A DNA stretch of 21,709 nucleotides from an uncultured Deferribacteres bacterium (GCA_964014485.1 CAXHAT010000138.1:1-21709); one strand, 5' to 3'. Shown: positions 1,335 to 18,879, counted from the first letter of the stretch. Notes: a model not told the origin generated them from the sequence alone. Numbers and translations are program-made.

Positions 1335-1390
1335 ACCGTTCGGTTGATAAAGCGACAGTTTCGAAAAATCATTTGGAGAAGGAAACGAAC

Positions 1391-3400
1391 ATGAAAATCA
1401 GAAAAACCTCTGGCGCAACAATCGTTTTCACACTGTTGAGCATCCTTATGTCTGCGAGTTTCGCGCAGGCGCAATTCACCGAAATCGCCAAGATCCAGGC
1501 GAGCGATAAAGAAGCTTTTGATCAGTTCGGCGTTTCGGTCTCGATTAGCGGCGACCGTGCCATTGTCGGAGCGGATCTGGAAGACGCGGACGGTTTCAGC
1601 GTCGGGGCGGCCTACATTTTTGAGCGCAGCGGCGGGGTATGGAGCGAAGTCGCCAAAATTCAGGCGAGTGATAAGCAACCCCTTGACCATTTCGGCAGGT
1701 CAGTTTCGATCAGCGGCGACTATGCCATTGTCGGAGCCGATAGGGAAGACACAGGCGCTTTAGACGTCGGGGCGGCCTACATTTTCGAGCGCAACGGCGA
1801 GGTATGGAGCGAGGTCGCGAAAGTCCAAGCGAGCGATAAACAAGCATCTGACTGGTTCGGCTGTTCCGTATCAATCAGCGGCGACCGCGCCATTGTCGGG
1901 GCGCGATTTGAAAGCACGGGCGCTTTGGTCGCCGGCGCCGCTTACATTTTCGAGCGCAACGGCGGGGTGTGGAGCGAAGTCGCCAAAATCCAGGCAAGCG
2001 ATAAAGAAGCTCTTGACCAGTTCGGCATTTCGGTCTCGATCAGCGGCGACCGCGCCATTATCGGAGCAAATCAGGAAGGCACAGGCGGTTCTAAAGACGG
2101 GGCGGCCTACATTTTCGAGCGCAGCGGCGGGGTGTGGAGTGAAGTCGCCAAAATCCAGGCGAGCGATAAAGAAGCCGGTGACCGGTTCGGCATTTCGGTC
2201 TCGATCAGCGGCGACCGCGCCGTTGTGGGGGCGCGTGGGGAAGACACGGGCGGCGACAACGCCGGGGCGGCCTACATTTTCGAGCGCAGCGGCGGGATGT
2301 GGAGCGAAGTCGCCAAGATTCAAGCGAGCGATAAAGAAGCCGTTGACCTTTTCGGCTACTCGGTCGCGATTAGCGGCGACCGCGTCATTGTCGGTGCGTA
2401 TGGGGAAGACACAGGCGGTTTAGATGCCGGGGCGGCCTATATTTTCGAGCTCAATGGCGGAGTTTGGAACGAACTCGCCAAAGTCCTGGCCAGCGACAAA
2501 GAAGCCCATGACTGGTTCGGCTATTCGGTCGCGATCAGCGGCGATCGCATCATTGTTGGGGCGTGGCTTGAAGACACGGGCGGTTCCAAAGCCGGAGCAG
2601 CCTACATTTTTGAAAACGCGCCGATTGCTTCAGCATGCAATAACATTCAGGCTTTGATCGACGATCCGGGAACCGATCCGGACGCGCTTGACGCCCTGCA
2701 GGAAGCCAAAGACGCTTTGGAAGACGCCCAGGAAGCGCTGGATAACGGCGAGATCGAAGACATGCTCAACGCCCTGCGCGACGCCGCCGACGCCCTGGAA
2801 GAAGCCCGCGAAGACAATGTTGATACAGATGCCATCGCCAGCCTTCTGGCCGATTTCGCCCGCAGCGTAGCTACAGACAAAAAAGACGAAGCTTTAGCCT
2901 GCGATCCCGCTCCAACCGGTAAAATGGCCGACGATATGGAAGACGGCGACAACGATCTCGCCGACGGCGACGAAGAATACGCCGACAGCTACTTTGGCGA
3001 CGCGATCAAGGACTATCGCAAGGCGTGGGAAGATTATTGCAGTGCGCTGGAACGGTGTGTTTCTCCGAAGGCAGTTTTCAGTGACCAGCATTCAGTGTCC
3101 AGTGATCAGTTATTGCCGCAAGCGTTTGCACTGTATCAGAATTATCCGAATCCGTTTAATCCATCGACGACGATTCAGTTTGATTTGATCGAAGCCAACC
3201 ATGTTTCGTTAAGCATTTACAACAGCGCGGGACAACTCGTGCGCACGCTGGTTTCCGGCGATTACGCTCCCGGCGCGCACAAGGTCGTCTGGGATGCGCG
3301 TGATGATTCCGGTCAGCGGGTTTCCAGCGGATTGTACGTGTACACAATTCGGATTGGACAGCAATTCACCGCGCAGAAGAAGTTGTTGTTGATGAAGTGA
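1391..3400 (+). CDS. Secreted 7-bladed FG-GAP repeat beta-propeller protein with acidic helical domain and CTD (P2)
   Basis: GGAGAAGGA lies upstream of ATG 1391. The signal peptide ends in AQA-Q. Seven 55-aa repeats (AKIQASDK..D.FG.SVSISGDRAIVGA..ED.GG...GAAYIFE) are followed by the shared C-terminal cassette. Confidence 0.9.
   Translation: MKIRKTSGATIVFTLLSILMSASFAQAQFTEIAKIQASDKEAFDQFGVSVSISGDRAIVGADLEDADGFSVGAAYIFERSGGVWSEVAKIQASDKQPLDHFGRSVSISGDYAIVGADREDTGALDVGAAYIFERNGEVWSEVAKVQASDKQASDWFGCSVSISGDRAIVGARFESTGALVAGAAYIFERNGGVWSEVAKIQASDKEALDQFGISVSISGDRAIIGANQEGTGGSKDGAAYIFERSGGVWSEVAKIQASDKEAGDRFGISVSISGDRAVVGARGEDTGGDNAGAAYIFERSGGMWSEVAKIQASDKEAVDLFGYSVAISGDRVIVGAYGEDTGGLDAGAAYIFELNGGVWNELAKVLASDKEAHDWFGYSVAISGDRIIVGAWLEDTGGSKAGAAYIFENAPIASACNNIQALIDDPGTDPDALDALQEAKDALEDAQEALDNGEIEDMLNALRDAADALEEAREDNVDTDAIASLLADFARSVATDKKDEALACDPAPTGKMADDMEDGDNDLADGDEEYADSYFGDAIKDYRKAWEDYCSALERCVSPKAVFSDQHSVSSDQLLPQAFALYQNYPNPFNPSTTIQFDLIEANHVSLSIYNSAGQLVRTLVSGDYAPGAHKVVWDARDDSGQRVSSGLYVYTIRIGQQFTAQKKLLLMK
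1475..2614 (+). repeat. Seven tandem 165-bp coding repeats (FG-GAP blades)
   Basis: Near-identical units such as gcggcctacattttcgagcgcagcggcggggtgtggagcgaagtcgccaaaatccaggcgagcgataaa recur every 165 bp. Confidence 0.9.
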
Positions 3401-3407
3401 TTTGACG

Positions 3408-3465
3408 AAAACCGGCAATCGTGAATCGAAAGTGGTCTGATTTGCGATTGCCGGTTTCATTTTTT
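3408..3465 (+). terminator. Rho-independent terminator after P2
   Basis: Stem AAACCGGCAATCGTGAATC / GATTTGCGATTGCCGGTTT (two G-U pairs) followed by CATTTTTT. Confidence 0.75.
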
Positions 3466-3713
3466 CGGGCCGCAATGTAAAATCTCTCGCCAGCCTATCT
3501 GCAAACCTTTGACGTTTTCGTAACTCTACGCAGAGGCGTTGTAAACGGACTTCCGGCGCCGTCCGCTTTCCATTGCATTTCCTGCGGATTCATTTCAGAA
3601 TGGACTCTACAATCATTCGCCAAATCCGACCAAGTTTTGGCGTTTAGAACAAAGCTCTTTCGAGTAAGCGGTTTTAATTCCGCACTATCCTTACAAACAG
3701 GAGGAAGTTTACA

Positions 3714-6700
3714 ATGCATGGAACATGGGCGCCAGGACAGTCAGAAAATCAGCGTCGATTCCGCAACGTTCTACAAGCAGGAGCGGCTTCTGCCGCAGCG
3801 ATGTTCGCTTTCCTGATGACAACCGTAGGAGGCGCGACCCCAACACCCGCACCACCGGCGACACACTGTTTTGTCGTGACAAACACAAATGACGCAGGAG
3901 CAGGCTCGCTGCGGCAGGCGATTCTCGATGCGAATGCGACTGCAAACATCGACGCCGCCACGCCGGATACCATAAAATTCAACATTCCAGGGGCTGGCCC
4001 GCATACGATTTCCCCGACCTCGCAGTTACCTGCGGTGACAGACCCGGTCATCATCGATGGTCTCACCCAGCCGGGCGCTTCCTGTTCCAGCTGGCCGCCA
4101 ACCCTGGAGATTGAACTCGACGGCAGCAATCTGGGCGGATCCAGCGCCTTCGGTCTGACTTTCAGAACGGATGGCAACACCATTCGTGGACTTGTTATCA
4201 ACCGATTTTCGTTGGCGGGCATCTGGTTTGATGGCAGTAACAACAACAAAGTAGCATGCAACTTCCTAGGCGCCGATGTGACTGGCCTGCTGGCGCGCCC
4301 AAACAACTTCGCCATTTCGATGGACGGCTCAAACACGCAAATCGGCGGGCTCACCACCGCTGAGCGTAACCTGATTTCAGGAAATTCTGGCCAGGGCATC
4401 TCTCTTGGCGGCGATAACAACATTATTCAAGGCAATTACATCGGTGTTGATGTGACTGGCGCCGCCGACCTTGGCAACGGCAGGTCCGGCATCCAGGTGT
4501 CTGGAGAGAACAACACCATTGGCGGGACTGCCTCCGGCGCCATGAATGTGATTTCGGGCAATCGACAATACGGTGTCACGGTTGACAGCAGGGGGGTAAC
4601 CCTTCCAACGAAGAAAAATACCATTCAAGGCAATATCGTTGGGCTGAACGCAGCCGGAACCGCCGCTGTTCCCAACGATTCGATCGGCGTTTTCATTGTC
4701 GAATCCGACAGCAATCTCGTGGGGGGCATTGTAGAAGGTGCGCGAAACATCATCTCCGGCAATGGCAGCAGAACCAATGCGAACGAAGATGGGAACGTTG
4801 GCGTCTATGTTCGGATGTCGAAACACAATACGATTCAAGGCAACTTTGTCGGGACAGATCTTTCCGGCACGGTCGATCTCGGCAATCTCGATCACGGTAT
4901 TTACGTTTTTGCCGATTCGGACAGCAATCTCATTGGCGGAACTGTACCGCGGGCGGGTAACCTGGTCTCTGGCAACGGTAGAATGGGCGTCCGCATTGGC
5001 GGCGGGTCAGAATACAATGTCGTCCAGGGAAATCTCGTGGGCACGGACGTGACCGGCACCGCGCCGTTAGGCAACGACGATTCAGGTATTCGCTTTAGTG
5101 GAGGTTCAAGTCATGGTATCGTAGGCGGCGTCGAACCCAATGCGCGAAACATTATCTCCAACAATGGTCGATTCGGCTTGCGGTTCAGCGGCGGATCTCA
5201 CTCAGCGGTCATCAAAAACAACTATATCGGCGTCGATATCACCGGAACGGCGGCCATGGGCAACGATACTTCGGGCGTCCGGTTCAGCGGTGGCTCCGAT
5301 TCATGCCAGGTCGGTGGATCTGCACCGAACGAAGGCAATGTCATCTCAGCAAACGGAGATGAAGGTCTGCTGTTCAGCGGCGGCGCCGCGGAGGGTGCAA
5401 TTGTTCAGGGCAACAAAATCGGCACTGATCGCTTCGGCAGCACGAACCTGGGGAATGGGTCGTATGGCATTAGAATGGAAACAACCGACCCGCCCGGACG
5501 CATTGCCCTTATTGGCGGCGTCAATCCTGGCGAAGGAAACATCATTGCCTTCAACGACAGCGCGGGCGTTCTCCTGACTGATGAACTCCGCATCCCGGTT
5601 GCTATTCTTGGCAACTCGATCTTCAACAATGGCGGACTGGGTATTGATCTCGGCGCCGATGCAGGCGACTTCGAAGACGGCGTCACCGGCAACGACCCTT
5701 CCGACGACGATACCGGTCCCAACGGCCTGCAAAACTTCCCCGTCATCACCGAGGTGAATACAGACGGCAGTGGCTCCGTGACCATTTCGGGGATCTTCAA
5801 CAGCACAGCGAATACCAGCGGTTTCCGCCTGGAATTTTTCGCGAATGCGGTGTGCAATGGCGATCAAAGTGGTGCGGCCCAGGCGGACGACTATGGCGAA
5901 GGTGAAACCTTTATCGGCGCCGATGTGGTGACGACCAACTCTTCAGGAGACGCCAGTTTTTCGTTTGCCTTTAGTGCGGTCGTGGCTGGCGGTGCATTCA
6001 TCACCGCAACCGCAACGTCGCCGGACAGCAGTACTTCGGAATTCAGCCAGTGCGTCATTGCTGTTCAAGGTTGTGGTGCTGAAACGGTCATCAATGATGC
6101 AACCGCCGCCGTACAAGCGCTCATCGATGATTCAGGTACCGATTCGGACGCGCTGGATGCCCTGGACGAAGCCAAAGACGCACTTGCCGACGCCCTCGGC
6201 TATGCCCTGGTAGATGACGTCGAAGAACTCTGCGACGCCCTGCGCGACGCCGCCGACGCCCTGGAAGAAGCCCGCGAAGACGCCGACGGCACCGATCCGA
6301 TCGCCAGTTCCCTTGCTGATTTAGCGCGCTGCATCGCCGAAGAAAAACGCGAAGAGGCGCTTGAATGCGATCCTTTGCCCTCCGGCAAAATGGCCGACGA
6401 CATCGAAGACGGTGACAACGACCGCGCAGACGGTGATGAAGAGTACAATGATGGCTACTTCGGCGACGCCATCAAGGATTATTGCAAGGCGTGGGAAGAT
6501 TATTGTGATGCGCTGGACCGTTGCGAGAACCCAAAAGCCGCAGCGCTCGACAATGATGAATCGATCATTGAAAACGCTTTGCCGACCGAGTTTGCACTGC
6601 ATCAGAATTATCCGAATCCGTTTAATCCATCGACGACGATTCAGTTTGATCTCGTCGACGCTGGTCATGTGTCGTTGAGCATCTACAACAGCGCGGGACA

Positions 6701-6866
6701 GCTTGTTCGCACGTTGGTTTCCGGCGATTACGCCCCCGGCGCGCACAAGGTCGTCTGGGATGCGCGTGATGATTCCGGTCAGCGCGTGGCCAGCGGATTG
6801 TACATGTACACGATCAGAATCGGTCAGCAATTCACCGCGCAGAAGAAGTTGTTGTTGATGAAGTGA
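3714..6866 (+). CDS. Secreted right-handed parallel beta-helix repeat protein with acidic helical domain and CTD (P3)
   Basis: RBS CAGGAGGA, then a hydrophobic N-terminal segment and a cap motif VTNTNDAGAGSLRQAILDAN. Many GN.IG.D.TG / N.ISGN beta-helix repeats follow, then an FRLEFFAN...ITATAT...STSEFS domain and the shared C-terminal cassette. Confidence 0.88.
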   Translation: MHGTWAPGQSENQRRFRNVLQAGAASAAAMFAFLMTTVGGATPTPAPPATHCFVVTNTNDAGAGSLRQAILDANATANIDAATPDTIKFNIPGAGPHTISPTSQLPAVTDPVIIDGLTQPGASCSSWPPTLEIELDGSNLGGSSAFGLTFRTDGNTIRGLVINRFSLAGIWFDGSNNNKVACNFLGADVTGLLARPNNFAISMDGSNTQIGGLTTAERNLISGNSGQGISLGGDNNIIQGNYIGVDVTGAADLGNGRSGIQVSGENNTIGGTASGAMNVISGNRQYGVTVDSRGVTLPTKKNTIQGNIVGLNAAGTAAVPNDSIGVFIVESDSNLVGGIVEGARNIISGNGSRTNANEDGNVGVYVRMSKHNTIQGNFVGTDLSGTVDLGNLDHGIYVFADSDSNLIGGTVPRAGNLVSGNGRMGVRIGGGSEYNVVQGNLVGTDVTGTAPLGNDDSGIRFSGGSSHGIVGGVEPNARNIISNNGRFGLRFSGGSHSAVIKNNYIGVDITGTAAMGNDTSGVRFSGGSDSCQVGGSAPNEGNVISANGDEGLLFSGGAAEGAIVQGNKIGTDRFGSTNLGNGSYGIRMETTDPPGRIALIGGVNPGEGNIIAFNDSAGVLLTDELRIPVAILGNSIFNNGGLGIDLGADAGDFEDGVTGNDPSDDDTGPNGLQNFPVITEVNTDGSGSVTISGIFNSTANTSGFRLEFFANAVCNGDQSGAAQADDYGEGETFIGADVVTTNSSGDASFSFAFSAVVAGGAFITATATSPDSSTSEFSQCVIAVQGCGAETVINDATAAVQALIDDSGTDSDALDALDEAKDALADALGYALVDDVEELCDALRDAADALEEAREDADGTDPIASSLADLARCIAEEKREEALECDPLPSGKMADDIEDGDNDRADGDEEYNDGYFGDAIKDYCKAWEDYCDALDRCENPKAAALDNDESIIENALPTEFALHQNYPNPFNPSTTIQFDLVDAGHVSLSIYNSAGQLVRTLVSGDYAPGAHKVVWDARDDSGQRVASGLYMYTIRIGQQFTAQKKLLLMK

Positions 6867-6895
6867 TTTGCGGTTTCAGCTTCATCTTATAACTG

Positions 6896-6941
6896 AAAAA
6901 GCATCGTTCGGGAAATCCGGGCGATGCTTTTTTGTTTTTTT
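6896..6941 (+). terminator. Rho-independent (possibly bidirectional) terminator after P3
   Basis: AAAAAGCATCGTTCGGG-AAA-TCCGGGCGATGCTTTTTTGTTTTTTT. Confidence 0.85.
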
Positions 6942-7032: not shown

Positions 7033-10000
7033 ATGAAAACATTCTACAGCCCAGGAACGGCCTACAAGCGAAGTTTCTATTCGCCGGAGAAATCAGTTCT
7101 TCTGAAAAACTTGAGATTCCAGCGTTCTCGCCGTGCAGTAAGCTTTATCGGCGCATTTTTGGCTCTGGCACTCTCTCCAGCCTTGGGGCAAAGTCAAGAT
7201 TTTTCATCGATTAAAGAAACCGGCGTTCCTTTCATGCAAAACTTCGGGTTTGAAGAGTACGGCGCGCATCCGCAGAATTGGGGGCTTGTGCAAGACGAGC
7301 GCGGCAGGATGTATTTTGGCAATACCGAAGGAATTATCATCTATGACGGCGTTCGCTGGCATTCTATTAAGCTGCCAAATCAGTCATTCGTTTTCGCGCT
7401 GGCGCAGGATCAAACCGGACGCATTTATGCGGGCGGCCAAAATGAATTCGGCTACTTGAGTCCTGATTCCGTCGGTCAATTGCGCTACGTTTCCCTAACG
7501 CCGCAACTTCCTGAGGAACATCGTGCGTTTGGCTTCATTTCGCAAATTCAAATTTCCGGAGAATACGTCTATTTTCAATCCTTGTCTCGGCTCTTCCGCT
7601 GGCAGCCCCGTCTGGCCGCTTCCGAAGATTCATTGACCGGCGATTTCAAAATTTGGCGCTCGAAAACCAGATTTCTCAGTCTGTACAACGTCGGCGGGGA
7701 AATCTTTACGCGCGAGCACCTGAACGGACTGGTCAGAGTCGACGGCGATTCCATCCATTCAGTACCCGGGGGAGAAATTTTCGCTACCGAGAGCCTTGCC
7801 AATATATTTACTTTTTCCCGCACGCCTGACGAACGTGCAATTCTGATTGTTTCTTCCGTTCAAGGATTGTTCGTGATCGAATCGGACGCGATTACGCCGT
7901 TTCCGACGCAGGCGGACGATCTTTTGCGGCAGGGCGATATTTTTTACGCTTGCGAGCTTGAAGACGGCACGCTGGCAATGGGAACGGCGCACTACGGCCT
8001 TCTTCGTTTGAATACACAGGGAAATCTGCTGCAAATTTTGGATAAATCCTCCGGCCTGATCGATCAAAACGTCCATGATATGCGCGCTGACGCCCAAGGC
8101 GGGTTTTGGGCGACTTTTGACAAAGGTTTGGCGCGACTGGAAATTCCCGGACCTTTTTCAATCTTTACGGCGAAACAGGGTCTGGAAGGTTCCGTTTACA
8201 ATATCGTTCGTCATCAGGGTAAAATCTATATTGCCACAAGCGTCGGCGTTTTTCATCTGGTCGAGAGTGAGAACGCCCGCCCCGTTTTTCGGCTTTTACA
8301 AAATTTCAACAACGAATCCTGGTGGCTCCTTTCTGCTGGGGAAGTTTTGCTGGTTGCGACCTCCGAAGGCGTTCATGCCTTCAAGGACGGTCGGATAACT
8401 CAGCTCAACAAAGACATTTCTTTTACTTTATTTCGCTCAACTTTCAATCCGTCGCAAATCTTCATCGGGCTGAATGACGGTCTTGCTTTGCTGGAGTTTT
8501 CAAGCAACCAGTGGCGATATTCCGGGCGAATTTTAACGGCTAAAAGCGACGTTCGCAGCATCACGCAGTCTGATAACGGCGACGTTTGGCTTGGAACCGG
8601 CTATGAAGGCGTGATCCGCATTCCCGATTGGCCGAGAGCCGTATTCGGTAAAACCGATAGTTCAGCAATCGATTTCGATGAATATGGAGAAGCGAACGGT
8701 CTCCCGCCCGGCGGAGCCTTTGTCGTAAGCGTCAATAACGATGTGCGTTTTGCGACTCGCCAGGGGCTGCGTTTCTATGCCGAAAACCCGAACATGTTTT
8801 TTCCGGATTCCAGTCTGGGCGTGGCCTTTGCGGATTCCAGTTTCCAAATAGGTCGTGTCGTACAAGAATCCGGCGGCAGCGTTTGGCTGCAAAAAGTTTC
8901 GGCCAATAGTTTGGAAACCGGCGTTTTGCAGATGCAGCAAACCGGAAGCTACGTGTGGAACGCCAGGCCGTTTATGCGCATCGCCGATTTGGCGAGAGAG
9001 CTTTCGCAAATCTATCCGGAAGAAAACGGCGTCACCTGGTTTGCGACGATTGACGCCGTCGTACGCTACGATTCTCGTATCGCGAAGAATTATTCGCGCG
9101 AACATCACGCTTTGGTGGGCCGCGTGCTCTTGAACGGAGATTCTCTTATTTTCGGCGGATATGGAACCGCTGATTTTGCCGCTCCTGAGTTGCATTATGC
9201 GAACCATACTTTTCGCTTCGAGTACGCAGCAACAAGCTTTGACCATCCCGCCGCTAACCAGTTTCAAACGTTTCTGGAAGGTTTTGACGAAACCTGGTCG
9301 TCCTGGACGCATGAAACGCAAAAAGATTACACCAATTTGCCGCACGGCGATTTCCAATTTCGCGTACGTGCGAAGAATGTTTATGGAAATCTGAGCCGCG
9401 AGGACAGTTTTTCGTTTTCCATCGCGCCGCCATGGTATCAGACATGGTGGGCGTATGCGATTTACGCCCTGCTTTTTCTCACTGCCGTTTTTGTCGTCGG
9501 AAAAATTTACGGGGACTATCGCGCGAAAGAACAGGCGAAAGAGCTGGCTCGGGAGCGCGAAATCAACGACCGTCTGCGCAAGGTCGACAAGCTCAAGGAC
9601 GAATTTCTCGCCAATACGTCGCACGAACTGCGCACGCCCCTAAATGGCGTTATTGGCTTGACGGAATCGCTGCTGGACGGAGCAGGCGGAGATCTGCCGC
9701 CCAAAGCCGCCGCCGATCTTGGGCTTGTGGTCGCCAGCGGCAAGCGGCTATCCAGCATGGTGAACGACCTGCTCGATTTTTCCAAACTCAAGACGCATGA
9801 ATTGACGTTGGTTAAAAAGCCGGTCGATCTTCACGTCATTGCTGAACTGGTGCTGAAATTCAGCGAAACGTTGATCGGCGGAAAAGCGCTGGCTTTGCAA
9901 AACCGCGTGCCGAAAAAGCTGCCTCCGGTTGACGCGGATGAGAGCCGGTTGCAGCAGATTCTTTACAATCTCATTGGCAACGCTGTGAAATTTACCCGGG

Positions 10001-11655
10001 AAGGAGACGTCATCATTTCCGCACATGAAACAACCGGCGGTGAGATTGAGATTTCAGTCTTGGATACGGGGATCGGGATTCCACAAGAAAATCACGAAAC
10101 CGTCTTTCAATCTTTCGAACAAGCTGACGCTTCGACGACGCGCGAGTATGGCGGCACAGGCTTGGGACTTTCGATCACCAAACAATTGGTGGAACTGCAC
10201 GGCGGTAAAATTTGGCTAAAATCACAGCCCGGCGAGGGGGCGAAGTTTTTCTTCACGCTGCCAATCGCAAATCAAGTGCCTGGCGAAGAGAAGAATGATA
10301 TTGGAGTAAGCGGTGAGTCGGAAAAATTGTTTGCGCCGGGTTTGGCGCGCGTTCAGGAAACTAACGGCAATGCGCAAGATATTTTCGTGGAAGAAAGCGG
10401 CCGCGCGAACGACGCGTTTCGCATTCTCGTCGTGGACGACGAGCCAGTCAATCAGCAAGTTTTAACCAATCATTTGCAGCCGCTGAATTACAACGTGACC
10501 CAAGCGTTTGACGGCGAACAAGCTTTGCGAGCCGTTGAGAAGGAAGCGCATTTTGACTTGATTTTGCTCGACATTATGATGCCGCGCATGTCCGGCTACG
10601 AAGTCTGCGGAAAAATTCGCGAACAATATTTGCCGAGTGAATTGCCGGTGATTATGGTGACGGCGAAAGATCAGGTCGGCGATTTAGTGGAAGGCTTCCT
10701 TTCCGGCGCCAACGACTATCTGGCCAAGCCTTTTTCCAAAGACGAATTGCTGGCGCGCATCAAAACGCACTTGAATCTTTACAACATCAATTCCGCTTAC
10801 GGACGTTTTGTGCCGCACGAATTTTTACGCGCCTTGGGCCATGAATCGATCATCGACGTCAGCGCCGGTGATCAAGTGAGCCAAGAAATGACCGTGTTAT
10901 TTTCTGATATTCGCGGTTACAGCGCCTTGTCGGAATCAATGAGCCCGCAGGAAAATTTTAACTTCTTGAATGCGTACTTGCGCCGCGTCGGGCCGGTGAT
11001 TGCGGAAAACCAGGGTTTTGTGAATCAATATTACGGCGACGGCATTATGGCGCTGTTTTGGGGCGGGGCGGATCGCGCCGTGCAAGCGGCCATCGATTTG
11101 CAAAAAAACGTTGCAAACTACAATCTTGAGCGCGAGAAAAAGGGGCGCTCGCCGGTCGAGATTGGCGTCGGTTTAAACACGGGGCCTTTGATGATGGGCA
11201 TTCTCGGCGACAGCGGCAGAATGAACGCGGGCGTGGTCTCTGACGCGGTCAACACCGCCGCGCGCATGGAAGGTCTGACAAAATTCTACAATGCGCCGAT
11301 TATCATCAGCGAAAATACATTGGCGAAAATTCGCCAGCTCGAAAGCTTTGCGATTCGGCGTTTGGGCCGGGTGCAAGTTAAAGGTAAAGTTGATGCCGTC
11401 ACAGTTTTCGAAATCATCTGCGGCGAAGACGAAAAAACGGTGCGTCTAAAAACCGAAACAACGGCACTTTTCGAACAGGGCGTGGACAAATACCTTTCGC
11501 GAGACTTTGCAGATTCGGCGGATATCTTTCATGAAATTGTACACCGGAACCTGGGAGACAAGACGGCGAAAATATATGCGGAACGAGCGAGCTTGCGTCG
11601 CGAAAAAGGCGCGCCTGAAGATTGGGACGGAGTGGAAAAGATGAAGGAAAAATAA
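7033..11655 (+). CDS. Membrane hybrid sensor: periplasmic beta-propeller + Y_Y_Y + TM + HisKA + HATPase + REC + class III adenylate/guanylate cyclase
   Basis: Signal-like segment ending ALG-Q; propeller repeats (QD..GR.Y.G); Y_Y_Y-like KDYTNLPHGDFQFRVRA; TM PPWYQTWWAYAIYALLFL; H-box FLANTSHELRTPL; N/G boxes NLIGNAVKFT, DTGIGI, GGTGLGL; REC VVDDE..LLDIMMP..AKPF; cyclase LFSDIRGY..GDGIMA..GVGLNTG..DAVNTAARME. The exact start is uncertain. Confidence 0.92.
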   Translation: MKTFYSPGTAYKRSFYSPEKSVLLKNLRFQRSRRAVSFIGAFLALALSPALGQSQDFSSIKETGVPFMQNFGFEEYGAHPQNWGLVQDERGRMYFGNTEGIIIYDGVRWHSIKLPNQSFVFALAQDQTGRIYAGGQNEFGYLSPDSVGQLRYVSLTPQLPEEHRAFGFISQIQISGEYVYFQSLSRLFRWQPRLAASEDSLTGDFKIWRSKTRFLSLYNVGGEIFTREHLNGLVRVDGDSIHSVPGGEIFATESLANIFTFSRTPDERAILIVSSVQGLFVIESDAITPFPTQADDLLRQGDIFYACELEDGTLAMGTAHYGLLRLNTQGNLLQILDKSSGLIDQNVHDMRADAQGGFWATFDKGLARLEIPGPFSIFTAKQGLEGSVYNIVRHQGKIYIATSVGVFHLVESENARPVFRLLQNFNNESWWLLSAGEVLLVATSEGVHAFKDGRITQLNKDISFTLFRSTFNPSQIFIGLNDGLALLEFSSNQWRYSGRILTAKSDVRSITQSDNGDVWLGTGYEGVIRIPDWPRAVFGKTDSSAIDFDEYGEANGLPPGGAFVVSVNNDVRFATRQGLRFYAENPNMFFPDSSLGVAFADSSFQIGRVVQESGGSVWLQKVSANSLETGVLQMQQTGSYVWNARPFMRIADLARELSQIYPEENGVTWFATIDAVVRYDSRIAKNYSREHHALVGRVLLNGDSLIFGGYGTADFAAPELHYANHTFRFEYAATSFDHPAANQFQTFLEGFDETWSSWTHETQKDYTNLPHGDFQFRVRAKNVYGNLSREDSFSFSIAPPWYQTWWAYAIYALLFLTAVFVVGKIYGDYRAKEQAKELAREREINDRLRKVDKLKDEFLANTSHELRTPLNGVIGLTESLLDGAGGDLPPKAAADLGLVVASGKRLSSMVNDLLDFSKLKTHELTLVKKPVDLHVIAELVLKFSETLIGGKALALQNRVPKKLPPVDADESRLQQILYNLIGNAVKFTREGDVIISAHETTGGEIEISVLDTGIGIPQENHETVFQSFEQADASTTREYGGTGLGLSITKQLVELHGGKIWLKSQPGEGAKFFFTLPIANQVPGEEKNDIGVSGESEKLFAPGLARVQETNGNAQDIFVEESGRANDAFRILVVDDEPVNQQVLTNHLQPLNYNVTQAFDGEQALRAVEKEAHFDLILLDIMMPRMSGYEVCGKIREQYLPSELPVIMVTAKDQVGDLVEGFLSGANDYLAKPFSKDELLARIKTHLNLYNINSAYGRFVPHEFLRALGHESIIDVSAGDQVSQEMTVLFSDIRGYSALSESMSPQENFNFLNAYLRRVGPVIAENQGFVNQYYGDGIMALFWGGADRAVQAAIDLQKNVANYNLEREKKGRSPVEIGVGLNTGPLMMGILGDSGRMNAGVVSDAVNTAARMEGLTKFYNAPIIISENTLAKIRQLESFAIRRLGRVQVKGKVDAVTVFEIICGEDEKTVRLKTETTALFEQGVDKYLSRDFADSADIFHEIVHRNLGDKTAKIYAERASLRREKGAPEDWDGVEKMKEK

Positions 11656-11661
11656 ACCAAC

Positions 11662-13731
11662 ATGCAAGTACGGATCGCAGCGTTTCTCAAATCTCTTCGT
11701 CCTTTATTAGAAGTGCTTCATAGTGAATGTCGTCAGTTTTCCGCTGGTGAAACCGTCGTGCGCGAAAACGAGCGTGATGATGCGCTTTTTTTTCTCGAAA
11801 AGGGCCAAGTACGTATCATTTGGGGAGCTGATAAATTTGAATTAGCCGTCGTGCAGGCTCCTGAAGTGCTCGGAGAATTGGCTTATCTGCAAAACGCTTC
11901 TCACTCAGCGACGGCCGTTGCGATAGATGAATGCTCGGTCATCATTTTACCGCGGAATGCTGTTCAAAAGCTCAAAGATATTCGCCCCGATTTGCATGAA
12001 CATTTGTACGAATATCTCCTGGAAATTCTTGCGTCACGTTTCCGTTACAACGCGGATATGCGCCATCAACTGGCCGTACAAAAAAAGGAAATTAGCGAGC
12101 TGAGCGACAAGCTTAAAGAAATGGATCGGCTTAAGTCGCGTTTTTTCACCAACATTTCCCACGAACTGCGCACGCCATTGACTTTAATTCTGGGCCAGAT
12201 CGAAACGGTGATGGAAAATTCCGGCGGCGAAAATAATCGTCAGAAATTGCAAATGGCTTTTCGCAACGCTAAACAATTGCTGCGCTTGATCAACCAATTG
12301 TTAGACCTCGCCAAATTTGACGCGCAACGGATGACGCTGAACGCCTCGCCCGGAAACATTGTGCCGTTGCTGAGGAATCTCACTTACTCATTCGAGTCCC
12401 TGGCGCACAAAAAACGAATCATGCTGTTTTTCGAGTCCGAACAAGATGAAGTTATTATCAATTTTGAGCAGGACAAGATTGAGAAAATCATGTACAATCT
12501 GCTCTCGAACGCCTTTAAATTCACGCCGGAAGGAGGGAGAATCAGTGTTCAGTTGTCAGTAATCAGTGATCAATCGCCGAGCAAGTCACTAAATACAAAT
12601 GACGACTTACTCATAACTGTCCGCGACAGCGGCGTCGGCATTCCCAGAGATAGATTGCCGCACGTCTTCGACCGATTTTACCAGGCCGATCATTCGCAAA
12701 CGCGAGAGTTTGAAGGAACCGGCGTCGGCTTGGCTTTAACGAAAGAACTCGTGGAGCTGCACGGCGGCGCGATTTCGGCGGAAAGCGAAGAAGGTTTTGG
12801 CGCAGCGTTTTCCGTTCGTCTGCCGGTGGTCAGTTTTCAGTCTTCAGTTTCCAGTGATCAAGCCGACGCAAATATTTTTTATAAGACTGACGCTCAAGAT
12901 TTCCAAAATTCCAACAATCCAACACGCCCAAAATCGATCAAACCAACAAAAAAGGGCGACTTTGTGCTCATTGTCGAAGACAACGACGACGTGCGGGCTT
13001 ACATCCGGCAAACATTGGAAAATGACTATCGCATCATAGAAGCTGCGGATGGCGAAGAAGGCTTTAAACGGGCGCAGGAATACATCCCCGATCTTATTAT
13101 CACCGACGTGATGATGCCGAAAGTTGACGGTTACGCGCTGAGCCGCATGCTGCGCGAAGACGAAGTGACGAGCCACATTCCGATCATCATGCTCACCGCA
13201 AAGGCGGGGGAAGATGAACGCATTGAAGGCTTCGAAACCGGCGTGGACGCTTACTTGATCAAGCCGTTCAGCGCGAAAGAACTGCGCGTTCGTATACGCA
13301 AGCTGATTGAACTGCGGCGTGCGATACAGCAAAATCTTCGAGAATCCGGACTCGATTCGCAAGAATCCAAAACGGAGCAAACAACGCTAAAAATCAGCGC
13401 GCTCGATCAGGCTTTTCTTGATCGCTTGCAAAAGCTTGTGTTGGAAAACTTGAATGATGAAAAATTTACGGCGCCCGTTCTGTCTCGAAAAATCGGCATG
13501 AGCGAGCGGCAATTACATCGCAAACTCAAATCATTGCTTGATTGCTCCCCGGGGCGGTTCATTCGCGACCAACGCATTTACGCCGCGAAAAATCTATTGC
13601 AAGACGGCGGCCTTACGATAACCGAAGCCGCTTTTCAGGTCGGCTACAACAGCCTTTCCTCCTTCACCCGCGCCTTCCGCGAAACCTTCGGCCAAACGCC
13701 GACGGATTTTCTAAAGCAACGGCTTGGTTAA
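11662..13731 (+). CDS. Soluble hybrid regulator: cNMP-binding domain + HisKA + HATPase + REC + AraC-type HTH
   Basis: cNMP fold (FSAGETVVRENE..LFFLEKGQVRI..LGELAYL..HSATAVA); H-box FFTNISHELRTPL; NLLSNAFKFT, DSGVGI, GTGVGL; REC IVEDN..ITDVMMP..IKPF; AraC IGMSERQLHRKLK...ITEAAFQVGYNSLSSFTRAFRETFGQTP. No TM segment seen. Confidence 0.92.
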   Translation: MQVRIAAFLKSLRPLLEVLHSECRQFSAGETVVRENERDDALFFLEKGQVRIIWGADKFELAVVQAPEVLGELAYLQNASHSATAVAIDECSVIILPRNAVQKLKDIRPDLHEHLYEYLLEILASRFRYNADMRHQLAVQKKEISELSDKLKEMDRLKSRFFTNISHELRTPLTLILGQIETVMENSGGENNRQKLQMAFRNAKQLLRLINQLLDLAKFDAQRMTLNASPGNIVPLLRNLTYSFESLAHKKRIMLFFESEQDEVIINFEQDKIEKIMYNLLSNAFKFTPEGGRISVQLSVISDQSPSKSLNTNDDLLITVRDSGVGIPRDRLPHVFDRFYQADHSQTREFEGTGVGLALTKELVELHGGAISAESEEGFGAAFSVRLPVVSFQSSVSSDQADANIFYKTDAQDFQNSNNPTRPKSIKPTKKGDFVLIVEDNDDVRAYIRQTLENDYRIIEAADGEEGFKRAQEYIPDLIITDVMMPKVDGYALSRMLREDEVTSHIPIIMLTAKAGEDERIEGFETGVDAYLIKPFSAKELRVRIRKLIELRRAIQQNLRESGLDSQESKTEQTTLKISALDQAFLDRLQKLVLENLNDEKFTAPVLSRKIGMSERQLHRKLKSLLDCSPGRFIRDQRIYAAKNLLQDGGLTITEAAFQVGYNSLSSFTRAFRETFGQTPTDFLKQRLG

Positions 13732-13759: not shown

Positions 13760-14107
13760 TCAATCTAAGTCAAGATAGTTCTTAACGGCTTGTTCAAGCT
13801 CTTTCAATTTCCCAGGCGTACATGCTCCGACATAGCCTACACATTTGGACTTCTCAATCGTTGTGATCTGGTGAGCCAAAGCTGCGCACTTTTTATTCAG
13901 GCCAGACTCGCCTTTTGAAAAAAGGACGGTCGACGGACTTTTCCCAAGCCATCCTTCGCTCGTTGTCAGCGGGACAATCGTTAAAGACTTCCAGTTTGGC
14001 GCGTTGCTGAAACTGTTATGAGAAACGATGATTCCGGGACGCATGCCTTGCTGCTCAGAACCGCTGCGAGGCTGCAAACGAATAAGGAAAATATCCCCTT
14101 TTACCAC
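13760..14107 (-). CDS. mazF: PemK/MazF-family endoribonuclease toxin (type II TA)
   Basis: Motifs KGDIFLI..GSEQQGMRPGIIVS..IVPLTT..QITTIEK; GTG start preceded by GGAGG; overlaps the antitoxin stop by 7 nt. Confidence 0.88.
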   Translation of the reverse strand: MVKGDIFLIRLQPRSGSEQQGMRPGIIVSHNSFSNAPNWKSLTIVPLTTSEGWLGKSPSTVLFSKGESGLNKKCAALAHQITTIEKSKCVGYVGACTPGKLKELEQAVKNYLDLD

Positions 14108-14358
14108 TCCGTTTCCTCCAGCAATTGACGCGTGACGACAGGATCGAATTCCTGCACAAACTCTTCGCTGTGTTTCGCATTTTTCTCAACGTATTTGTCG
14201 AAAGCCTCCGCCAGTTTTCGCTTTTTGTTCTCTTCCACAAATCTTGACAAAACGCTTTCAATCACTTTGTTCAAGCTGACCTTTTGGTGCGCGGCAATCG
14301 CTTTCAAGTCATTGTAAAGCTCGTTGCTCACGCGAGCATGTACCTGTTGTATCGCCAT
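14101..14358 (-). CDS. Putative ribbon-helix-helix antitoxin
   Basis: 85 aa; N-terminal RHH pattern (VHARVSNELYNDLKAIA...VSLNKVI); acidic C-terminus; directly upstream of and overlapping the toxin. Confidence 0.75.
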   Translation of the reverse strand: MAIQQVHARVSNELYNDLKAIAAHQKVSLNKVIESVLSRFVEENKKRKLAEAFDKYVEKNAKHSEEFVQEFDPVVTRQLLEETEW

Positions 14359-14584: not shown

Positions 14585-14677
14585 GCCCGCCATCATCAAT
14601 TCCTTTATTTTTGCATAGCAATAAAACGGAAGCCCGGATTGCAATCTGGGCCTTTCGGAACAAAACCCCTGGATGCA

Positions 14678-14727
14678 CGACGGCGGGCGGCAAAGCAAGA
14701 TGCTGCGTCGCCTGTCGTCGATTTTTT
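14678..14727 (+). terminator. Terminator-like hairpin in the leader of P4 (possible attenuator)
   Basis: CGACGGCGGGCGGCAAAGCA-AGA-TGCTGCGTCGCCTGTCGTCG followed by ATTTTTT, about 50 nt before the start codon. Confidence 0.5.
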
Positions 14728-14779
14728 AATTCGGAAGAAGCTTTTTGCTGATGTAGAAACTAAAATGAAGGACAACAAA

Positions 14780-16615
14780 ATGAACACTGTAAAACGATCC
14801 CTCAAAAATTTTGTCATCGTTCTACTTTTCTCTCTTCTCGCAACCTCGGCGTTTGCGCAAGACGTGTTTGTGAATTGGAATTCGACAACTTCGGGCGATC
14901 TGGATGGGACAACCGTCACCTTGAGCGGTATGGATAGCCATGACTTTTTTTCAGCAGACCTGACTGGCCCCGATTATTCCGCCGCTCCCGGTTCAGTTTC
15001 GCAACAGACTGTGTCCTATAGTGTTAACAGTGCCGTCGTCACCGCGACCTTTAGCCAGCCGGTGTCCGGTATCCGGTTGTATCTGGTCTTTTGGAGACCC
15101 GACATCACGTTTACTTTCAGTGAGCCGTTCACAGTTTCTTCAGGTTTAACAACTTCAACCGTTTCCAGAGATCAAATCACCACGCCGCCTTCGGCGTTTG
15201 GAGACGGTATCATCGAATTCACTGGCCCCGTTTCTTCCCTGACCATTACTTCCAACGCACCTCCGATGAATTTTAGCAGACAAGGGATTACTTTTAGCAA
15301 AGCTGGACCCGCCAACAGCGATCCGACTGCCAACGCCGGCGGAGATCAACAAGTCTGCGCGTCCGGCGCCTCGACGAACGTCACGTTGGACGGTTCCGGC
15401 TCCAGCGACCCTGACGGCGACGCCCTGACTTACACTTGGACAGAAGGCGCAGCCACGATTGCGACCAGCGTGAATCCAAGCGTTTCTCTGAGCGTGGGGA
15501 CGCACACAATCGAATTGACTGTTGACGACGGCAACGGCGGAACCGATACGGATGAAGTCGTCATCGAGATATTTGCCAACCCGACCGCAGACGCCGGTGC
15601 AGATCAGGAAGTTTTTCAGGGTTTTAGCACGCAAATCGGCGGCGGCCCGACAGGTTCGGGCGGAACCGGCGCGCTGACTTTTTCCTGGACGCCGACCGAC
15701 GGACTCGACAATCCCGCGATTGCCAATCCAACCGCGACCCCTGCGGCAACCACGACTTACACCGTGACCGTAACCGACGCCAACGGCTGCGAAAGCACGG
15801 ATCAAATGACTGTGACCGTACTCTCCAACGCCGACGTGATCACAATGGCGCTTGCCGACGTTCAGGCGCTTATCAATAATCCCAGCACACCTTCAAGCGC
15901 TTTGGGCGCGCTGCAGGACGCCGTTGACGCGCTTAACGACGCACTGGCCGCCAGCGCCGCCGGAGACACGAAAGACATGCTCGACGCCATGCGCGACGCC
16001 GCCGACGCTTTGGAAAAAGCGCGTCACAAAGGCGCCAACACCGATCCGATTGCGACGCAGCTTTCCAGTTTGGCCAGACACACCGCCGTGCAAAAGCGCG
16101 ATGAAGCTTTCGCCTGCGATCCGACGCCGAGCGGCAAAATGCTCGACGACATTGAAGACGGCGACAAAGACTTGGCCGACGGCGACGCTGAAGTGAACGG
16201 AACCTATCACGGCGACGGGATCAAGGACTATCGCAAGGCGTGGGAAGATTATTGTGACGCGTTGAATCGCTGCCAGAACCCTAAGGCGGTAAGCAGTGAA
16301 CAGTATACAGTGACTAGTCCACAGGTTACAGTTCACAGTTTCGCGCTGCATCAGAATTACCCGAATCCGTTCAACCCGAGCACGACAATTCAGTTTGATC
16401 TGGTGGATGCGGGTTATGTGTCGCTGAACATTTACAACAGCGCGGGACAGCTCGTGCGCACTCTGGTTTCCGGCGACTACGCTCCCGGCGCGCACAAGAT
16501 CGTTTGGGACGCGCGTGATGATTCCGGCGCCCGCGTGGCCAGCGGACTCTATCTCTACACGATCAAAGCCGGGCAGCAATTCGCTGCGCAGAAAAAGCTG
16601 CTGTTGATGAAGTAA
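14780..16615 (+). CDS. Secreted protein: unassigned N-terminal beta domain + PKD + Ig-like + acidic helical domain + CTD (P4)
   Basis: AAGGA lies before ATG 14780 (alternative ATG at 14765). The signal peptide ends in AFA-Q. PKD motif PTANAGGDQ..VTLDGSGSSDPDGDALTYTW..LTVDDGNG; an Ig repeat closely matching P1; shared cassette. Confidence 0.88.
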   Translation: MNTVKRSLKNFVIVLLFSLLATSAFAQDVFVNWNSTTSGDLDGTTVTLSGMDSHDFFSADLTGPDYSAAPGSVSQQTVSYSVNSAVVTATFSQPVSGIRLYLVFWRPDITFTFSEPFTVSSGLTTSTVSRDQITTPPSAFGDGIIEFTGPVSSLTITSNAPPMNFSRQGITFSKAGPANSDPTANAGGDQQVCASGASTNVTLDGSGSSDPDGDALTYTWTEGAATIATSVNPSVSLSVGTHTIELTVDDGNGGTDTDEVVIEIFANPTADAGADQEVFQGFSTQIGGGPTGSGGTGALTFSWTPTDGLDNPAIANPTATPAATTTYTVTVTDANGCESTDQMTVTVLSNADVITMALADVQALINNPSTPSSALGALQDAVDALNDALAASAAGDTKDMLDAMRDAADALEKARHKGANTDPIATQLSSLARHTAVQKRDEAFACDPTPSGKMLDDIEDGDKDLADGDAEVNGTYHGDGIKDYRKAWEDYCDALNRCQNPKAVSSEQYTVTSPQVTVHSFALHQNYPNPFNPSTTIQFDLVDAGYVSLNIYNSAGQLVRTLVSGDYAPGAHKIVWDARDDSGARVASGLYLYTIKAGQQFAAQKKLLLMK

Positions 16616-16627
16616 CCTCAGGCCATA

Positions 16628-16654
16628 TGCAACGCACTTCCGAAGTGCGTCGCA
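16628..16654. repeat. REP-like palindrome, copy 1
   Basis: TGCAACGCACTT-CCG-AAGTGCGTCGCA in the P4-P5 spacer; related to 18754-18781. Confidence 0.55.
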
Positions 16655-16713
16655 CGTTCCACGCCCTCGTAAATAAGTTTCTATTTTTCATATTCAAAAC
16701 AGCGGAGAATCCC

Positions 16714-18729
16714 ATGAAGAATCTTAAAACGACGATTGGAAACTTGACCGTATTCTTACTCAATTTCTGCCTGCTGACGGTCGTCGCTCAAGCGCAATTC
16801 AGCGAGGTCGCCAAAATCCAGGCGAGCGACAAACAAGCCTTTGACGAGTTCGGCCGGTCGGTCTCGATCAGCGGCGACCGCGCCATTGTTGGGGCGTTTG
16901 CGGAAAGCACGGGCGGTTTCTTCGCCGGGGCGGCCTATATTTTCGAGCGCACCGGCGGGGGCTGGAGCCAGGTCGCCAAAATCCAGGCGAGCGATCAACA
17001 AGCCTATGACTTTTTCGGCGGTTCGGTCTCGATCAGCGGCGACCGGGCTATTGTCGGGGCGACTGAGGAAGACACGGGCGGTCCCTCCGTCGGAGCGGCC
17101 TACATTTTCGAGCGCAGCGGCGGGGTGTGGAGCCAGGTCGCCAAAATCCAGGCGAGCGATAAACAAGCCGTTGATCGGTTCGGTAATTCGGTCTCGATCA
17201 GCGGCGACCGCGCCATTGTCGGGGTGCGGTCTGAAGATACGGGCGGCGCCAGCGCCGGAGCGGCCTACATTTTCGAGCGCAACGGCGGGGTGTGGAGCGA
17301 AGTCGCCAAAATCCAGGCGAGCGGTAAACAATCCTGCGCCAAGTTCGGCGAGTCAGTCTCGAGCAGGGGCGACCGCGCCATTGTCGGGGCGGATGGCGAA
17401 GACACGGGCGGTTCCGGCGCCGGAGCGGCCTACATTTTTGAGCGCAGCGGCGGGGTCTGGAGCGAAGTCTCCAAAATCCAGGCGAGCGATAAACAATCCG
17501 GCGACAATTTCGGCCAGTCGGTCTCGATCAACGGCGACCGCGCCATTGCCGGGGCGGATGGGGAAGACACGGGCGGTTCCAGCGCCGGGGCGGCTTACAT
17601 TTTCGAGCGCAGCGGCGGGGTTTGGAGTGAAGTCGCCAAAATTCAGGCCAGCGATAAACAAGCTGTTGACCTGTTCGGCACTTCGGTCGCGATCGACGTC
17701 GACCGAGCCATTGTCGGGGCGACTCGGGAAGACACGGGCGGTTCCGACGCCGGAGCGGCTTACATTTTCGAGCGCAGCGGCGGAGTTTGGAGCGAAGTCG
17801 CCAAAGTCCAGGCGAGCGATAAACAAGCCAGTGACCAATTTGGCAATTCGGTCTCGATTAGCGGCGACCACGCCATTGTCGGGGCGCGTTTGGAAGACAC
17901 GGGCGGTTCCGATGCCGGCGCCGCTTACACTTTTGAAGCGCTAGACAATCCAATCGTCATCGCTTGCGCCGAAATTCAGGCGCTTCTCGACGATCCGATG
18001 ACTGAGCCGGACGCTCTGAGCGCCTTGCAAGACGCGAAAGACGCTTTGAATGACGCGCAAACAGCAATGGATAACGATAAAATTGAAGACATGCTCAATT
18101 TCCTTCGCGACGCCGCCGACGCTTTGGAAGAAGCGCGCGAAGACAATGTTTTTACCGACGATATCGCCGCGATTTTAGCCGACTTTGCGCGCGACACGGC
18201 AACGGCCAAAAAGGACGAGGCCTTGGCGTGCGATCCTAGTCCGACCGGCAAGATGGCCGACGATATTGACGACGGCGACAATGATCTTGCCGACGGCGAT
18301 GCGGAAGTCGGCGATACCTATTTCGGAGACGGAATCAAGGACTATCGCAAAGCTTGGGAAGACTATTGCAGCGCATTGGATCGCTGCCAGAATCCGAAGA
18401 CTGTAAGCAGTGATCAGTCTTCAGTTTACAGTTCACAGTTTACGCCGATAGCCTTTGCTTTGCATCAAAACTATCCGAACCCCTTTAATCCGACTACGAC
18501 AATTCAGTTTGATCTGATCGAGGCGGGGAATGTTTCGCTGAACATCTACAACAGCGCCGGGCAGCTTGTTCGCACGCTGGTTTCCGGCGATTTCGTCCCC
18601 GGCGCGCACAAAGTGGTCTGGGATGCACGTGATAATTCCGGTCAACGCGTGGCGAGCGGGCTTTATCTATACATGATCAAAGTCGGGCAACAGTTTACTG
18701 CGCAGAAGAAGCTCTTGCTCATGAAGTAA
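16714..18729 (+). CDS. Secreted 7-bladed FG-GAP repeat beta-propeller protein with acidic helical domain and CTD (P5, paralogue of P2)
   Basis: GGAGA lies before ATG 16714. The signal peptide ends in AQA-Q. Seven 55-aa FG-GAP repeats are followed by the shared cassette. Confidence 0.9.
   Translation: MKNLKTTIGNLTVFLLNFCLLTVVAQAQFSEVAKIQASDKQAFDEFGRSVSISGDRAIVGAFAESTGGFFAGAAYIFERTGGGWSQVAKIQASDQQAYDFFGGSVSISGDRAIVGATEEDTGGPSVGAAYIFERSGGVWSQVAKIQASDKQAVDRFGNSVSISGDRAIVGVRSEDTGGASAGAAYIFERNGGVWSEVAKIQASGKQSCAKFGESVSSRGDRAIVGADGEDTGGSGAGAAYIFERSGGVWSEVSKIQASDKQSGDNFGQSVSINGDRAIAGADGEDTGGSSAGAAYIFERSGGVWSEVAKIQASDKQAVDLFGTSVAIDVDRAIVGATREDTGGSDAGAAYIFERSGGVWSEVAKVQASDKQASDQFGNSVSISGDHAIVGARLEDTGGSDAGAAYTFEALDNPIVIACAEIQALLDDPMTEPDALSALQDAKDALNDAQTAMDNDKIEDMLNFLRDAADALEEAREDNVFTDDIAAILADFARDTATAKKDEALACDPSPTGKMADDIDDGDNDLADGDAEVGDTYFGDGIKDYRKAWEDYCSALDRCQNPKTVSSDQSSVYSSQFTPIAFALHQNYPNPFNPTTTIQFDLIEAGNVSLNIYNSAGQLVRTLVSGDFVPGAHKVVWDARDNSGQRVASGLYLYMIKVGQQFTAQKKLLLMK
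16798..17937 (+). repeat. Seven tandem 165-bp coding repeats (FG-GAP blades)
   Basis: Same repeat unit as 1475-2614. Confidence 0.9.
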
Positions 18730-18781: not shown

Positions 18782-18879
18782 ACACACAATCCGCGCTGTC
18801 TCCGATCTGAAAATATTGGCCTTGTTCGCATGGCGGTTGTATATTGAGCCGACTTAATGACAATGTTTTGAGGAAGCTC

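Follow-up and report, generated by a model that had tools for sequence, protein, structure and literature searches.

Hybrid two-component system (HTCS) proteins of the Bacteroidetes type are single chains that carry a periplasmic sensor, a transmembrane (TM) helix, a histidine kinase (HK), a receiver (REC) and an AraC output. CyaC, the adenylate cyclase of Spirulina and Anabaena, is activated via phosphorylation of its proximal receiver, according to PMC3009899. Annotated kinases of about 400 amino acids (aa) with the order cNMP_binding-HisKA-HATPase_c place a cyclic-nucleotide-binding (CNB) domain N-terminal to the kinase, and literature searches found no experimental study of them. Here we report that the contig CAXHAT010000138.1 (C138), analysed over its whole 21.7 kb (21,709 nucleotides (nt); "the window") and part of the 8.4-Mb, 465-contig genome of an uncultured Deferribacteres bacterium, carries a predicted operon of two genes assembled from such parts. 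Gene 1 encodes an HTCS-type periplasmic sensor joined to a kinase, a receiver and a class III nucleotidyl cyclase, and gene 2, 6 nt downstream, a soluble protein with a CNB domain, a kinase, a receiver and an AraC output (Table 1). The modules are all of known kinds (CyaC-like, HTCS, cyclic-nucleotide-input kinase and class III cyclase), while the way they are combined is new, as are the His and Gln variants described below; no description of an HTCS-type sensor-cyclase fusion, or of a CNB-HK-REC-AraC protein, was found in CC-licensed PubMed Central (PMC) papers and bioRxiv.

The best single reading of the pair, which we adopt tentatively and could well abandon, is a two-tier relay from sensor to cyclic nucleotide to kinase to AraC domain, encoded by a lineage-specific operon of known modules. 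It is the most economical reading for genes that stand in a 6-nt-spaced operon, the first of which would make the very class of ligand that names the input domain of gene 2. A periplasmic ligand would switch on kinase 1, and phosphotransfer to the adjacent receiver would then activate the cyclase, by analogy with CyaC as presented in PMC3009899. The cyclic nucleotide produced (cAMP or cGMP, between which the Gln/Gly substrate pair does not decide) would occupy the CNB domain of gene 2, from which the signal would travel along a helix to kinase 2 and lead to phosphorylation of receiver 2. The AraC domain might then change transcription, possibly of the flanking genes for cargo of the type IX secretion system (T9SS). 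The identities of the modules are well supported. The proposed functional link between the genes has as its whole basis adjacency, complementary architecture and co-occurrence in two genomes.

A preliminary description of the window had placed the two open reading frames (ORFs) at the coordinates given in Table 1, 6 nt apart, and the match is exact; they share one reading frame (4629 = 3 x 1543). Because a terminator-like hairpin precedes gene 1, that gene probably starts a new transcription unit. No comparable terminator lies between the two genes, the gene on the downstream side is convergent with gene 2, and the 6-nt spacing without a terminator implies co-transcription. Contigs of two more sequencing runs from one marine-metagenome study span the junction with zero differences (X2 record 10, 11589-11739; X3 record 12, 11488-11729). 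We considered a fused or read-through form of the protein and rejected it: the contigs of the other runs carry the same TAA, the one homologue of gene 2 (P0123, below) begins at the equivalent N-terminus, and in a representative search over all protein lengths a query covering the CNB domain and HisKA was spanned by no long protein.

Pfam, with all domains of both genes above curated cut-offs, and a hydropathy scan uphold the domain order earlier proposed for gene 1, a propeller-type/Y_Y_Y sensor followed by TM helix, kinase, receiver and cyclase. About 750 aa of periplasmic region lie between the two hydrophobic segments. The Reg_prop signal is weak (41 bits in total, with no single repeat passing in Pfam), the propeller being a prediction from sequence, and the HTCS sensor structure PDB 4a2l aligns with the Y_Y_Y part only (E 4e-10). 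The orthologue in genome G161 covers the entire sensor region (1e-144). Behind the membrane, the kinase keeps its H-box (H864, HELRTP) and its N, G1 and G2 boxes, and the receiver has D1180 (DIMMP), T1210 and K1232. No DNA-binding output domain was found by Pfam.

The order CNB-HK-REC-AraC proposed for gene 2 is likewise borne out by Pfam. A motif scan located H167 with N, G1 and G2 boxes in the kinase and D482, T512 and K534 in the receiver, so both H-boxes and both receiver aspartates of the pair (H864/D1180 and H167/D482) are intact, as had been stated. The hydropathy scan gave no TM segment and Pfam no external sensor domain; a protein without a DNA output and one without a TM segment or sensor thus complement each other, in favour of the relay. 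For gene 2, AlphaFold2 (mean pLDDT 78) predicts a continuous helix from the CNB domain into the first DHp helix, which carries H167. One continuous helix is the usual route by which a sensor domain drives a kinase.

In the cyclase domain of gene 1, the metal-binding aspartates D1292 and D1336 and the transition-state pair Asn1407/Arg1411 align with those of PDB 2w01, 3r5g and 5x4t. The preliminary description had named an inactive cyclase as fatal to its reading, and the retention of these residues gives no sign of one. The positions that specify the base are Gln1332 and Gly1400, which differ from the Lys and Asp/Thr of a canonical class III adenylyl cyclase; Gln1332 is neither Glu nor Lys, and the product therefore cannot be called as cAMP or cGMP. 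The enzyme Rv0386 probably has Gln/Asn at its substrate positions. The best match among solved structures is the guanylyl cyclase Cya2 of Synechocystis (PDB 2w01, E 1.1e-22), whose substrate pair is Glu-Gly according to PMC4215837 and which the single change E488K converts to an adenylyl cyclase according to PMC5995499. Gly at the second position is common to Cya2 and gene 1, whereas the first is Glu in Cya2 (Lys in E488K) and Gln in gene 1. A Tyr that raises the guanylyl cyclase activity of Cya2, according to PMC4215837, stands opposite Ala in gene 1, and Cya2 has a CHASE2 sensor and neither kinase nor receiver.

The cyclase core and its C-terminal tail have more than 568 relatives, in cyanobacteria, Bacteroidota, Acidobacteriota, Leptospiraceae and Chloroflexota. 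A wider survey retained 80 loci with 112 cyclase ORFs, among which the HK-REC-cyclase layout was the commonest (78 of 112, by phmmer queried with domains from the window, not Pfam). The Lys/Thr pair occurs in 96 of the 112, which sets gene 1 apart from its CyaC-like relatives, and Gln at the first position in 14. With gene 1 and a protein of genome G167, a Calditrichia metagenome-assembled genome (MAG), added, all 16 tips of the Gln type fall in one exclusive clade (support 1.0), within which those two proteins share a Gln/Gly subclade (support 0.57). In the other ten sensor-cyclases examined from the window's phylum, the pair is Arg/Asp, His/Asp or Arg/Thr. Elsewhere in the window's own genome, the top-scoring cyclase domain (114 bits, in a 241-aa frame at G000:C136:3508-4053, locus L001) has a Glu/Gly pair as in Cya2 but Arg at the expected transition-state Asn, and the other four own-genome cyclases examined are Lys/Thr.

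The pair had been described as an HTCS split in two, and this part of the description does not hold, because the two HK-REC modules group with different lineages. They are 33% identical to each other; that of gene 1 is 47-59% identical to HK-REC-cyclase proteins and 31-35% to HTCS modules, and that of gene 2 is 50-65% identical over about 410 aa to HTCS proteins bearing Y_Y_Y. Gene 1 resembles CyaC in having HisKA-HATPase-REC directly before a C-terminal class III cyclase, and its module is 47-52% identical to those of three Microcoleus HK-REC-cyclases (CyaC itself was not in the alignment); it differs from CyaC in that its two membrane segments enclose a periplasmic Reg_prop/Y_Y_Y sensor of the HTCS type. 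With HTCS proteins (sensor structures PDB 4a2l/4a2m), gene 1 shares the Reg_prop/Y_Y_Y sensor, the TM helix and the HK-REC order, and gene 2 an HK-REC-AraC part homologous to the HTCS cytoplasmic module. Neither chain is a complete HTCS, since gene 1 lacks AraC and gene 2 lacks sensor and TM helix, and at 31-35% identity the HK-REC of gene 1 is no severed HTCS half. Judging by these alignments, a CyaC-like HK-REC-cyclase module gained an HTCS-type periplasmic sensor (gene 1) and, separately, an HTCS cytoplasmic module gained a CNB domain in place of sensor and TM helix (gene 2).

The same complementary layout could be explained by direct phosphotransfer or heteromeric contact in place of a diffusible messenger: kinase 1 might, for example, phosphorylate receiver 2, and the CNB domain would then modulate the response. 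Kinases and receivers encoded in one operon often interact, and such contact would give the periplasmic sensor both a cyclase and an AraC output where gene 1 has no DNA output and gene 2 no external sensor. We nevertheless regard it as highly improbable, given that gene 2 has a complete kinase of its own, that the HK-REC modules are of different lineages, and that HTCS and CyaC-type proteins are both described as signalling inside one chain.

Sensor-cyclases like gene 1 are not confined to the window. In a set of 167 genomes of the phylum (unpublished G158 and G162 included), REC-cyclase orthologues with 50-57% identity and frames of about 1500 aa occur in ten other genomes, and a paralogue lies on contig C120 of the window's own genome. 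The complete order Reg_prop-Y_Y_Y-HisKA-HATPase-REC-cyclase was found by Pfam in four relatives, from Saprospiraceae, Cyclobacteriaceae and Calditrichia MAGs and from G161.

Gene 2 is far rarer. A word-indexed search of 5.8 billion proteins with aa 1-160 returned, among 548 candidates, the query and one irrelevant match. HMMER against 1.84 billion representatives with aa 1-230 gave a single full-span match in the best 150, P0123 of G167 (694 aa, 49% identity), which has the same architecture; of the other 149, nine were checked by Pfam and none pairs a cyclic-nucleotide domain with HisKA. A scan of one genome per species found relatives at a single locus, again in G167, and a scan of metagenome contigs with alignment A1 gave 323 pattern matches and no relative. 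Over the CNB region, the best non-self match in the phylum set reaches 33% identity, in a frame the size of CRP. By feature and structure, Atlas clusters of 56-143 members with the order cNMP-HisKA-HATPase, commonest in Bacteroidota and Chloroflexota, stand closest to aa 1-400 of gene 2; we treat these as leads. A Pfam-confirmed example (L185, 404 aa, from a Cyclobacteriaceae MAG) has the canonical Arg in its phosphate-binding cassette (PBC). Unlike gene 2, kinases of this kind have no REC and no AraC domain.

Six longer frames of the phylum with cNMP_binding matches were examined as possible kinases like gene 2; all turned out to be fusions of other types (cNMP-cyclase-oxidoreductase, cNMP-fumarase and cNMP-ferredoxin), and not kinases. 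At L047 1384-3480 (-), L048 8784-10907 (+) and L049 8914-11082 (+), a single chain of 699-723 aa joins cNMP_binding to a class III cyclase and to a GFO/IDH/MocA oxidoreductase, an arrangement that would equip a cyclase with its own nucleotide sensor and redox enzyme. L050 5864-7813 (-) and L051 705-2564 (+) encode class II fumarase/aspartase-type lyases (Lyase_1 and FumaraseC_C) with N-terminal cNMP_binding.

Two bodies of evidence, the nucleotide pocket of gene 2 and the genomic neighbourhoods of both families, weigh against the relay. The CNB domain of gene 2 matches regulatory domains of PKA and PKG in the PDB, and its PBC (GELAYLQNAS-H81-SATA) keeps Gly71-Glu72-Leu-Ala and Ser82-Ala83, but His81 (codon 11902-11904) stands where the conserved Arg is expected. 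In every alignment to PKA and PKG CNB domains, His81 lies opposite the invariant cassette Arg, so that the domain departs at that residue from the pattern Gly-Glu...Arg-[Ser/Thr/Ala]-Ala. Of 33 CNB domains surveyed in the window's phylum and genome (one of them from unpublished G158), 30 carry Arg at the position and one carries Glu, and only gene 2 and P0123 have His. The Arg-Gly motif of the CRP cassette binds the acidic group of cAMP, according to PMC12937710, and because gene 2 has His for this Arg, binding of a cyclic nucleotide by gene 2 is unproven. The AlphaFold2 model does not help here, as its confidence in the CNB domain is low (pLDDT under 50 at aa 57-80) and the pocket cannot be judged.

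The preliminary description had proposed looking for the pair across related genomes and had named a lack of co-conservation as refuting its reading; the pair proved not to be co-conserved, and the adjacency was seen in this genome only. No neighbour with a cNMP_binding domain was found at any of about 93 related cyclase loci. At 11 sensor-cyclase loci (12 genes) of the phylum and the window's own genome, neither such a neighbour nor an HK-REC-AraC neighbour was found by phmmer, with Pfam run on 42 of the 66 listed flanking ORFs and C120 checked separately; two of these loci lie on contigs shorter than 3.5 kb, and the family members of G153 (no flank) and G162 were left out. At the 80 wider cyclase loci, a local cNMP HMM detected no ORF with a CNB domain over distances of up to 8 kb. 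P0123, the sole detected homologue of gene 2, has no cyclase within 10 kb; a divergent rhodanese gene lies upstream of it, with AraC and T9SS-cargo genes nearby. The two HK-REC-cyclase loci of G167 are on other contigs with unrelated neighbours, neither of them with a cNMP_binding domain. In the five other genomes with Gln-type cyclases no receptor like gene 2 was found, the best match reaching 50 bits. The cascade had also been called dedicated, which goes beyond the evidence, as the genome encodes six further cyclase domains and five other proteins with cNMP_binding domains.

These observations bear on a second explanation, namely that the genes are co-transcribed but act in parallel, with the CNB domain reading the cell-wide cyclic-nucleotide pool or some other small ligand and not the product of gene 1. 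Its supports are the His shared by both family members, the isolation of P0123 from any cyclase, the six other cyclases of the genome, and the lack of such a receptor beside gene 1's relatives at every other locus examined; moreover, domains of the CRP/FNR fold bind non-nucleotide ligands in several regulators, as described in PMC12937710. The rest of the cassette looks like that of true cyclic-nucleotide binders, however, and the Pfam score is well clear of its cut-off (61 bits vs 27.5), chance alone hardly explains a 6-nt operon spacing with a cyclase, and a Gln/Gly sensor-cyclase is present in the only other receptor-bearing genome. Parallel action is thus an explanation to be kept in mind, if an unlikely one.

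The one-genome occurrence also raises the question of whether the juxtaposition is recent and neutral, with gene 2, or its CNB and linker module, having landed behind gene 1 and the two acting independently. In G161, the surroundings of gene 1's true orthologue show no synteny with the window, as a small toxin-antitoxin-like pair and then a peptidase lie on its 3' side, and the HK-REC of gene 2 is nearer ordinary HTCS proteins (65%) than its architectural homologue P0123 (46%), which suggests recent shuffling. Yet the GC contents of the two genes (0.51 and 0.49) lie close to the genome mean (0.50), their motifs are intact, their spacing implies co-transcription, and the output class of gene 1 is the input class of gene 2. 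We consider an accident of this kind rather unlikely.

Some of the surveyed neighbourhoods have features of their own. At L083 8526-9292 (-), in G161, the place that gene 2 takes in the window is held by a small convergent pair, UPF0175 and a 142-aa ORF. Three related genomes, of two genera of one order, have a gene for a GAF-sigma54 activator-HTH_8 protein on the same strand 3' of the sensor-HK-REC-cyclase gene (L084 8384-9910 (-), L086 7237-8748 (+) and L087 8028-9656 (+)), with a BNR/sortilin T9SS protein next in at least two. We looked at these activators as alternative cyclic-nucleotide receptors; they have no NKFDE-like motif, and they remain a weak lead. The three are about 89% identical and hence one locus in close kin. 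L084 10249-19838 (-) holds a tandem pair of sensor-HK-REC-cyclase genes (1548 and 1624 aa), and at L090 1703-6407 (+) the cyclase domain runs over two overlapping frames (1393 + 224 aa), from a frameshift or sequencing error.

G167, the only other genome with a homologue of gene 2, encodes a Reg_prop-Y_Y_Y-HK-REC-cyclase with the Gln/Gly pair at an unlinked site. This co-occurrence of Gln/Gly sensor-cyclase and receptor speaks for the relay, but is a matter of two genomes and may reflect shared ancestry or transfer. A more specific form of the relay would have the Gln/Gly cyclase make a nucleotide other than the cell's usual cAMP (cGMP or another cyclic nucleotide), read selectively by the His-cassette CNB domain. 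We hold this to be improbable; if it were true, the cascade would be insulated from the genome's other cyclases and Arg-type receptors, and the presence of both unusual features in the two receptor-bearing genomes would reflect co-adaptation.

Table 1. Features of the two-gene locus and its surroundings; positions are counted from the first letter of the window.
Feature	Window position (nt)	Strand	Residues (aa)	Description and evidence
Large flanking genes (five in all)	3-6866 and 14639-18729	+		C-terminal T9SS sorting domain (FlgD_ig/Por_Secre_tail)
Terminator-like hairpin, strong	6894-6934	+		19-bp stem, then T-run; 3' of upstream T9SS-cargo gene
Gene 1	7033-11655	+	1540 in all	HTCS-type periplasmic sensor, TM, HisKA-HATPase, REC, class III nucleotidyl cyclase, C-terminal tail
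Gene 1 N-terminal signal/TM segment	7135-7191	+	35-53	Hydropathy scan
Gene 1 periplasmic sensor region	7192-9450	+	54-806	Divergent Reg_prop repeats and Y_Y_Y
Gene 1 Y_Y_Y	9238-9423	+	736-797	Pfam, 39 bits (cut-off 26.6)
Gene 1 transmembrane helix	9451-9507	+	807-825	Hydropathy scan
Gene 1 HisKA and HATPase_c	9595-10269	+	855-920 and 969-1079	Pfam, motif scan
Gene 1 Response_reg (receiver)	10423-10764	+	1131-1244	Pfam, motif scan
Gene 1 Guanylate_cyc (class III catalytic domain)	10876-11406	+	1282-1458	Pfam
Gene 1 conserved C-terminal tail	11407-11652	+		Beyond cyclase core; common to >568 relatives across phyla
Gene 1 stop and spacer	11653-11661	+		TAA, then 6-nt ACCAAC before gene 2 ATG
Gene 2	11662-13731	+	689 in all	Soluble; cNMP_binding, long helix, HisKA-HATPase, REC, AraC HTH
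Gene 2 cNMP_binding (CNB)	11731-11973	+	24-104	Pfam PF00027, 61 bits (cut-off 27.5)
Gene 2 predicted continuous helix, CNB to DHp helix 1	11986-12219	+	109-186	AlphaFold2, block-mean pLDDT 62-87
Gene 2 HisKA (H167) and HATPase_c	12133-12828	+	158-221 and 270-389	Pfam, motif scan
Gene 2 Response_reg (receiver)	12964-13296	+	435-545	Pfam, motif scan
Gene 2 AraC-type HTH_18 DNA-binding output	13480-13719	+	607-686	Pfam
MazF/PemK-like toxin ORF	13760-14107	-		PF02452, E 2e-18
Probable antitoxin ORF	14101-14358	-	85 in all	Upstream of toxin ORF, 7-nt overlap
Third sensor gene	18844-21708	+		Runs past contig end; Reg_prop 155 bits, Y_Y_Y 78 bits

All five large genes that flank the pair share a C-terminal T9SS sorting domain; two have seven FG-GAP_2 repeats each and one has PKD domains, and with GC contents of 0.555-0.596 the five exceed the genome mean. 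A conserved regulon was considered and rejected, as the T9SS-cargo proteins flanking gene 2 and those flanking P0123 are alike only in the C-terminal sorting domain of about 100 aa. The toxin ORF and its probable antitoxin form a pair convergent with gene 2, and the cytoplasmic part of the third sensor gene lies off the contig.

The finding concerns a single operon of a single marine-metagenome lineage, and its receptor is non-canonical. Two results hold regardless of how the pairing is understood: the fusion of an HTCS-type sensor to an HK-REC-cyclase recurs in at least three lineages, being present in the window's phylum, in a Calditrichia MAG and in two families of Bacteroidota, and class III cyclases with Gln at the base-specifying position form a well-supported clade. 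If the relay is true, it would show two phosphorelays naturally coupled in series via a diffusible second messenger, joining HTCS-type sensing, cyclic-nucleotide amplification and a cytoplasmic kinase read-out onto AraC. It would also provide a concrete example of a histidine kinase under cyclic-nucleotide control, an architecture that is common in databases.

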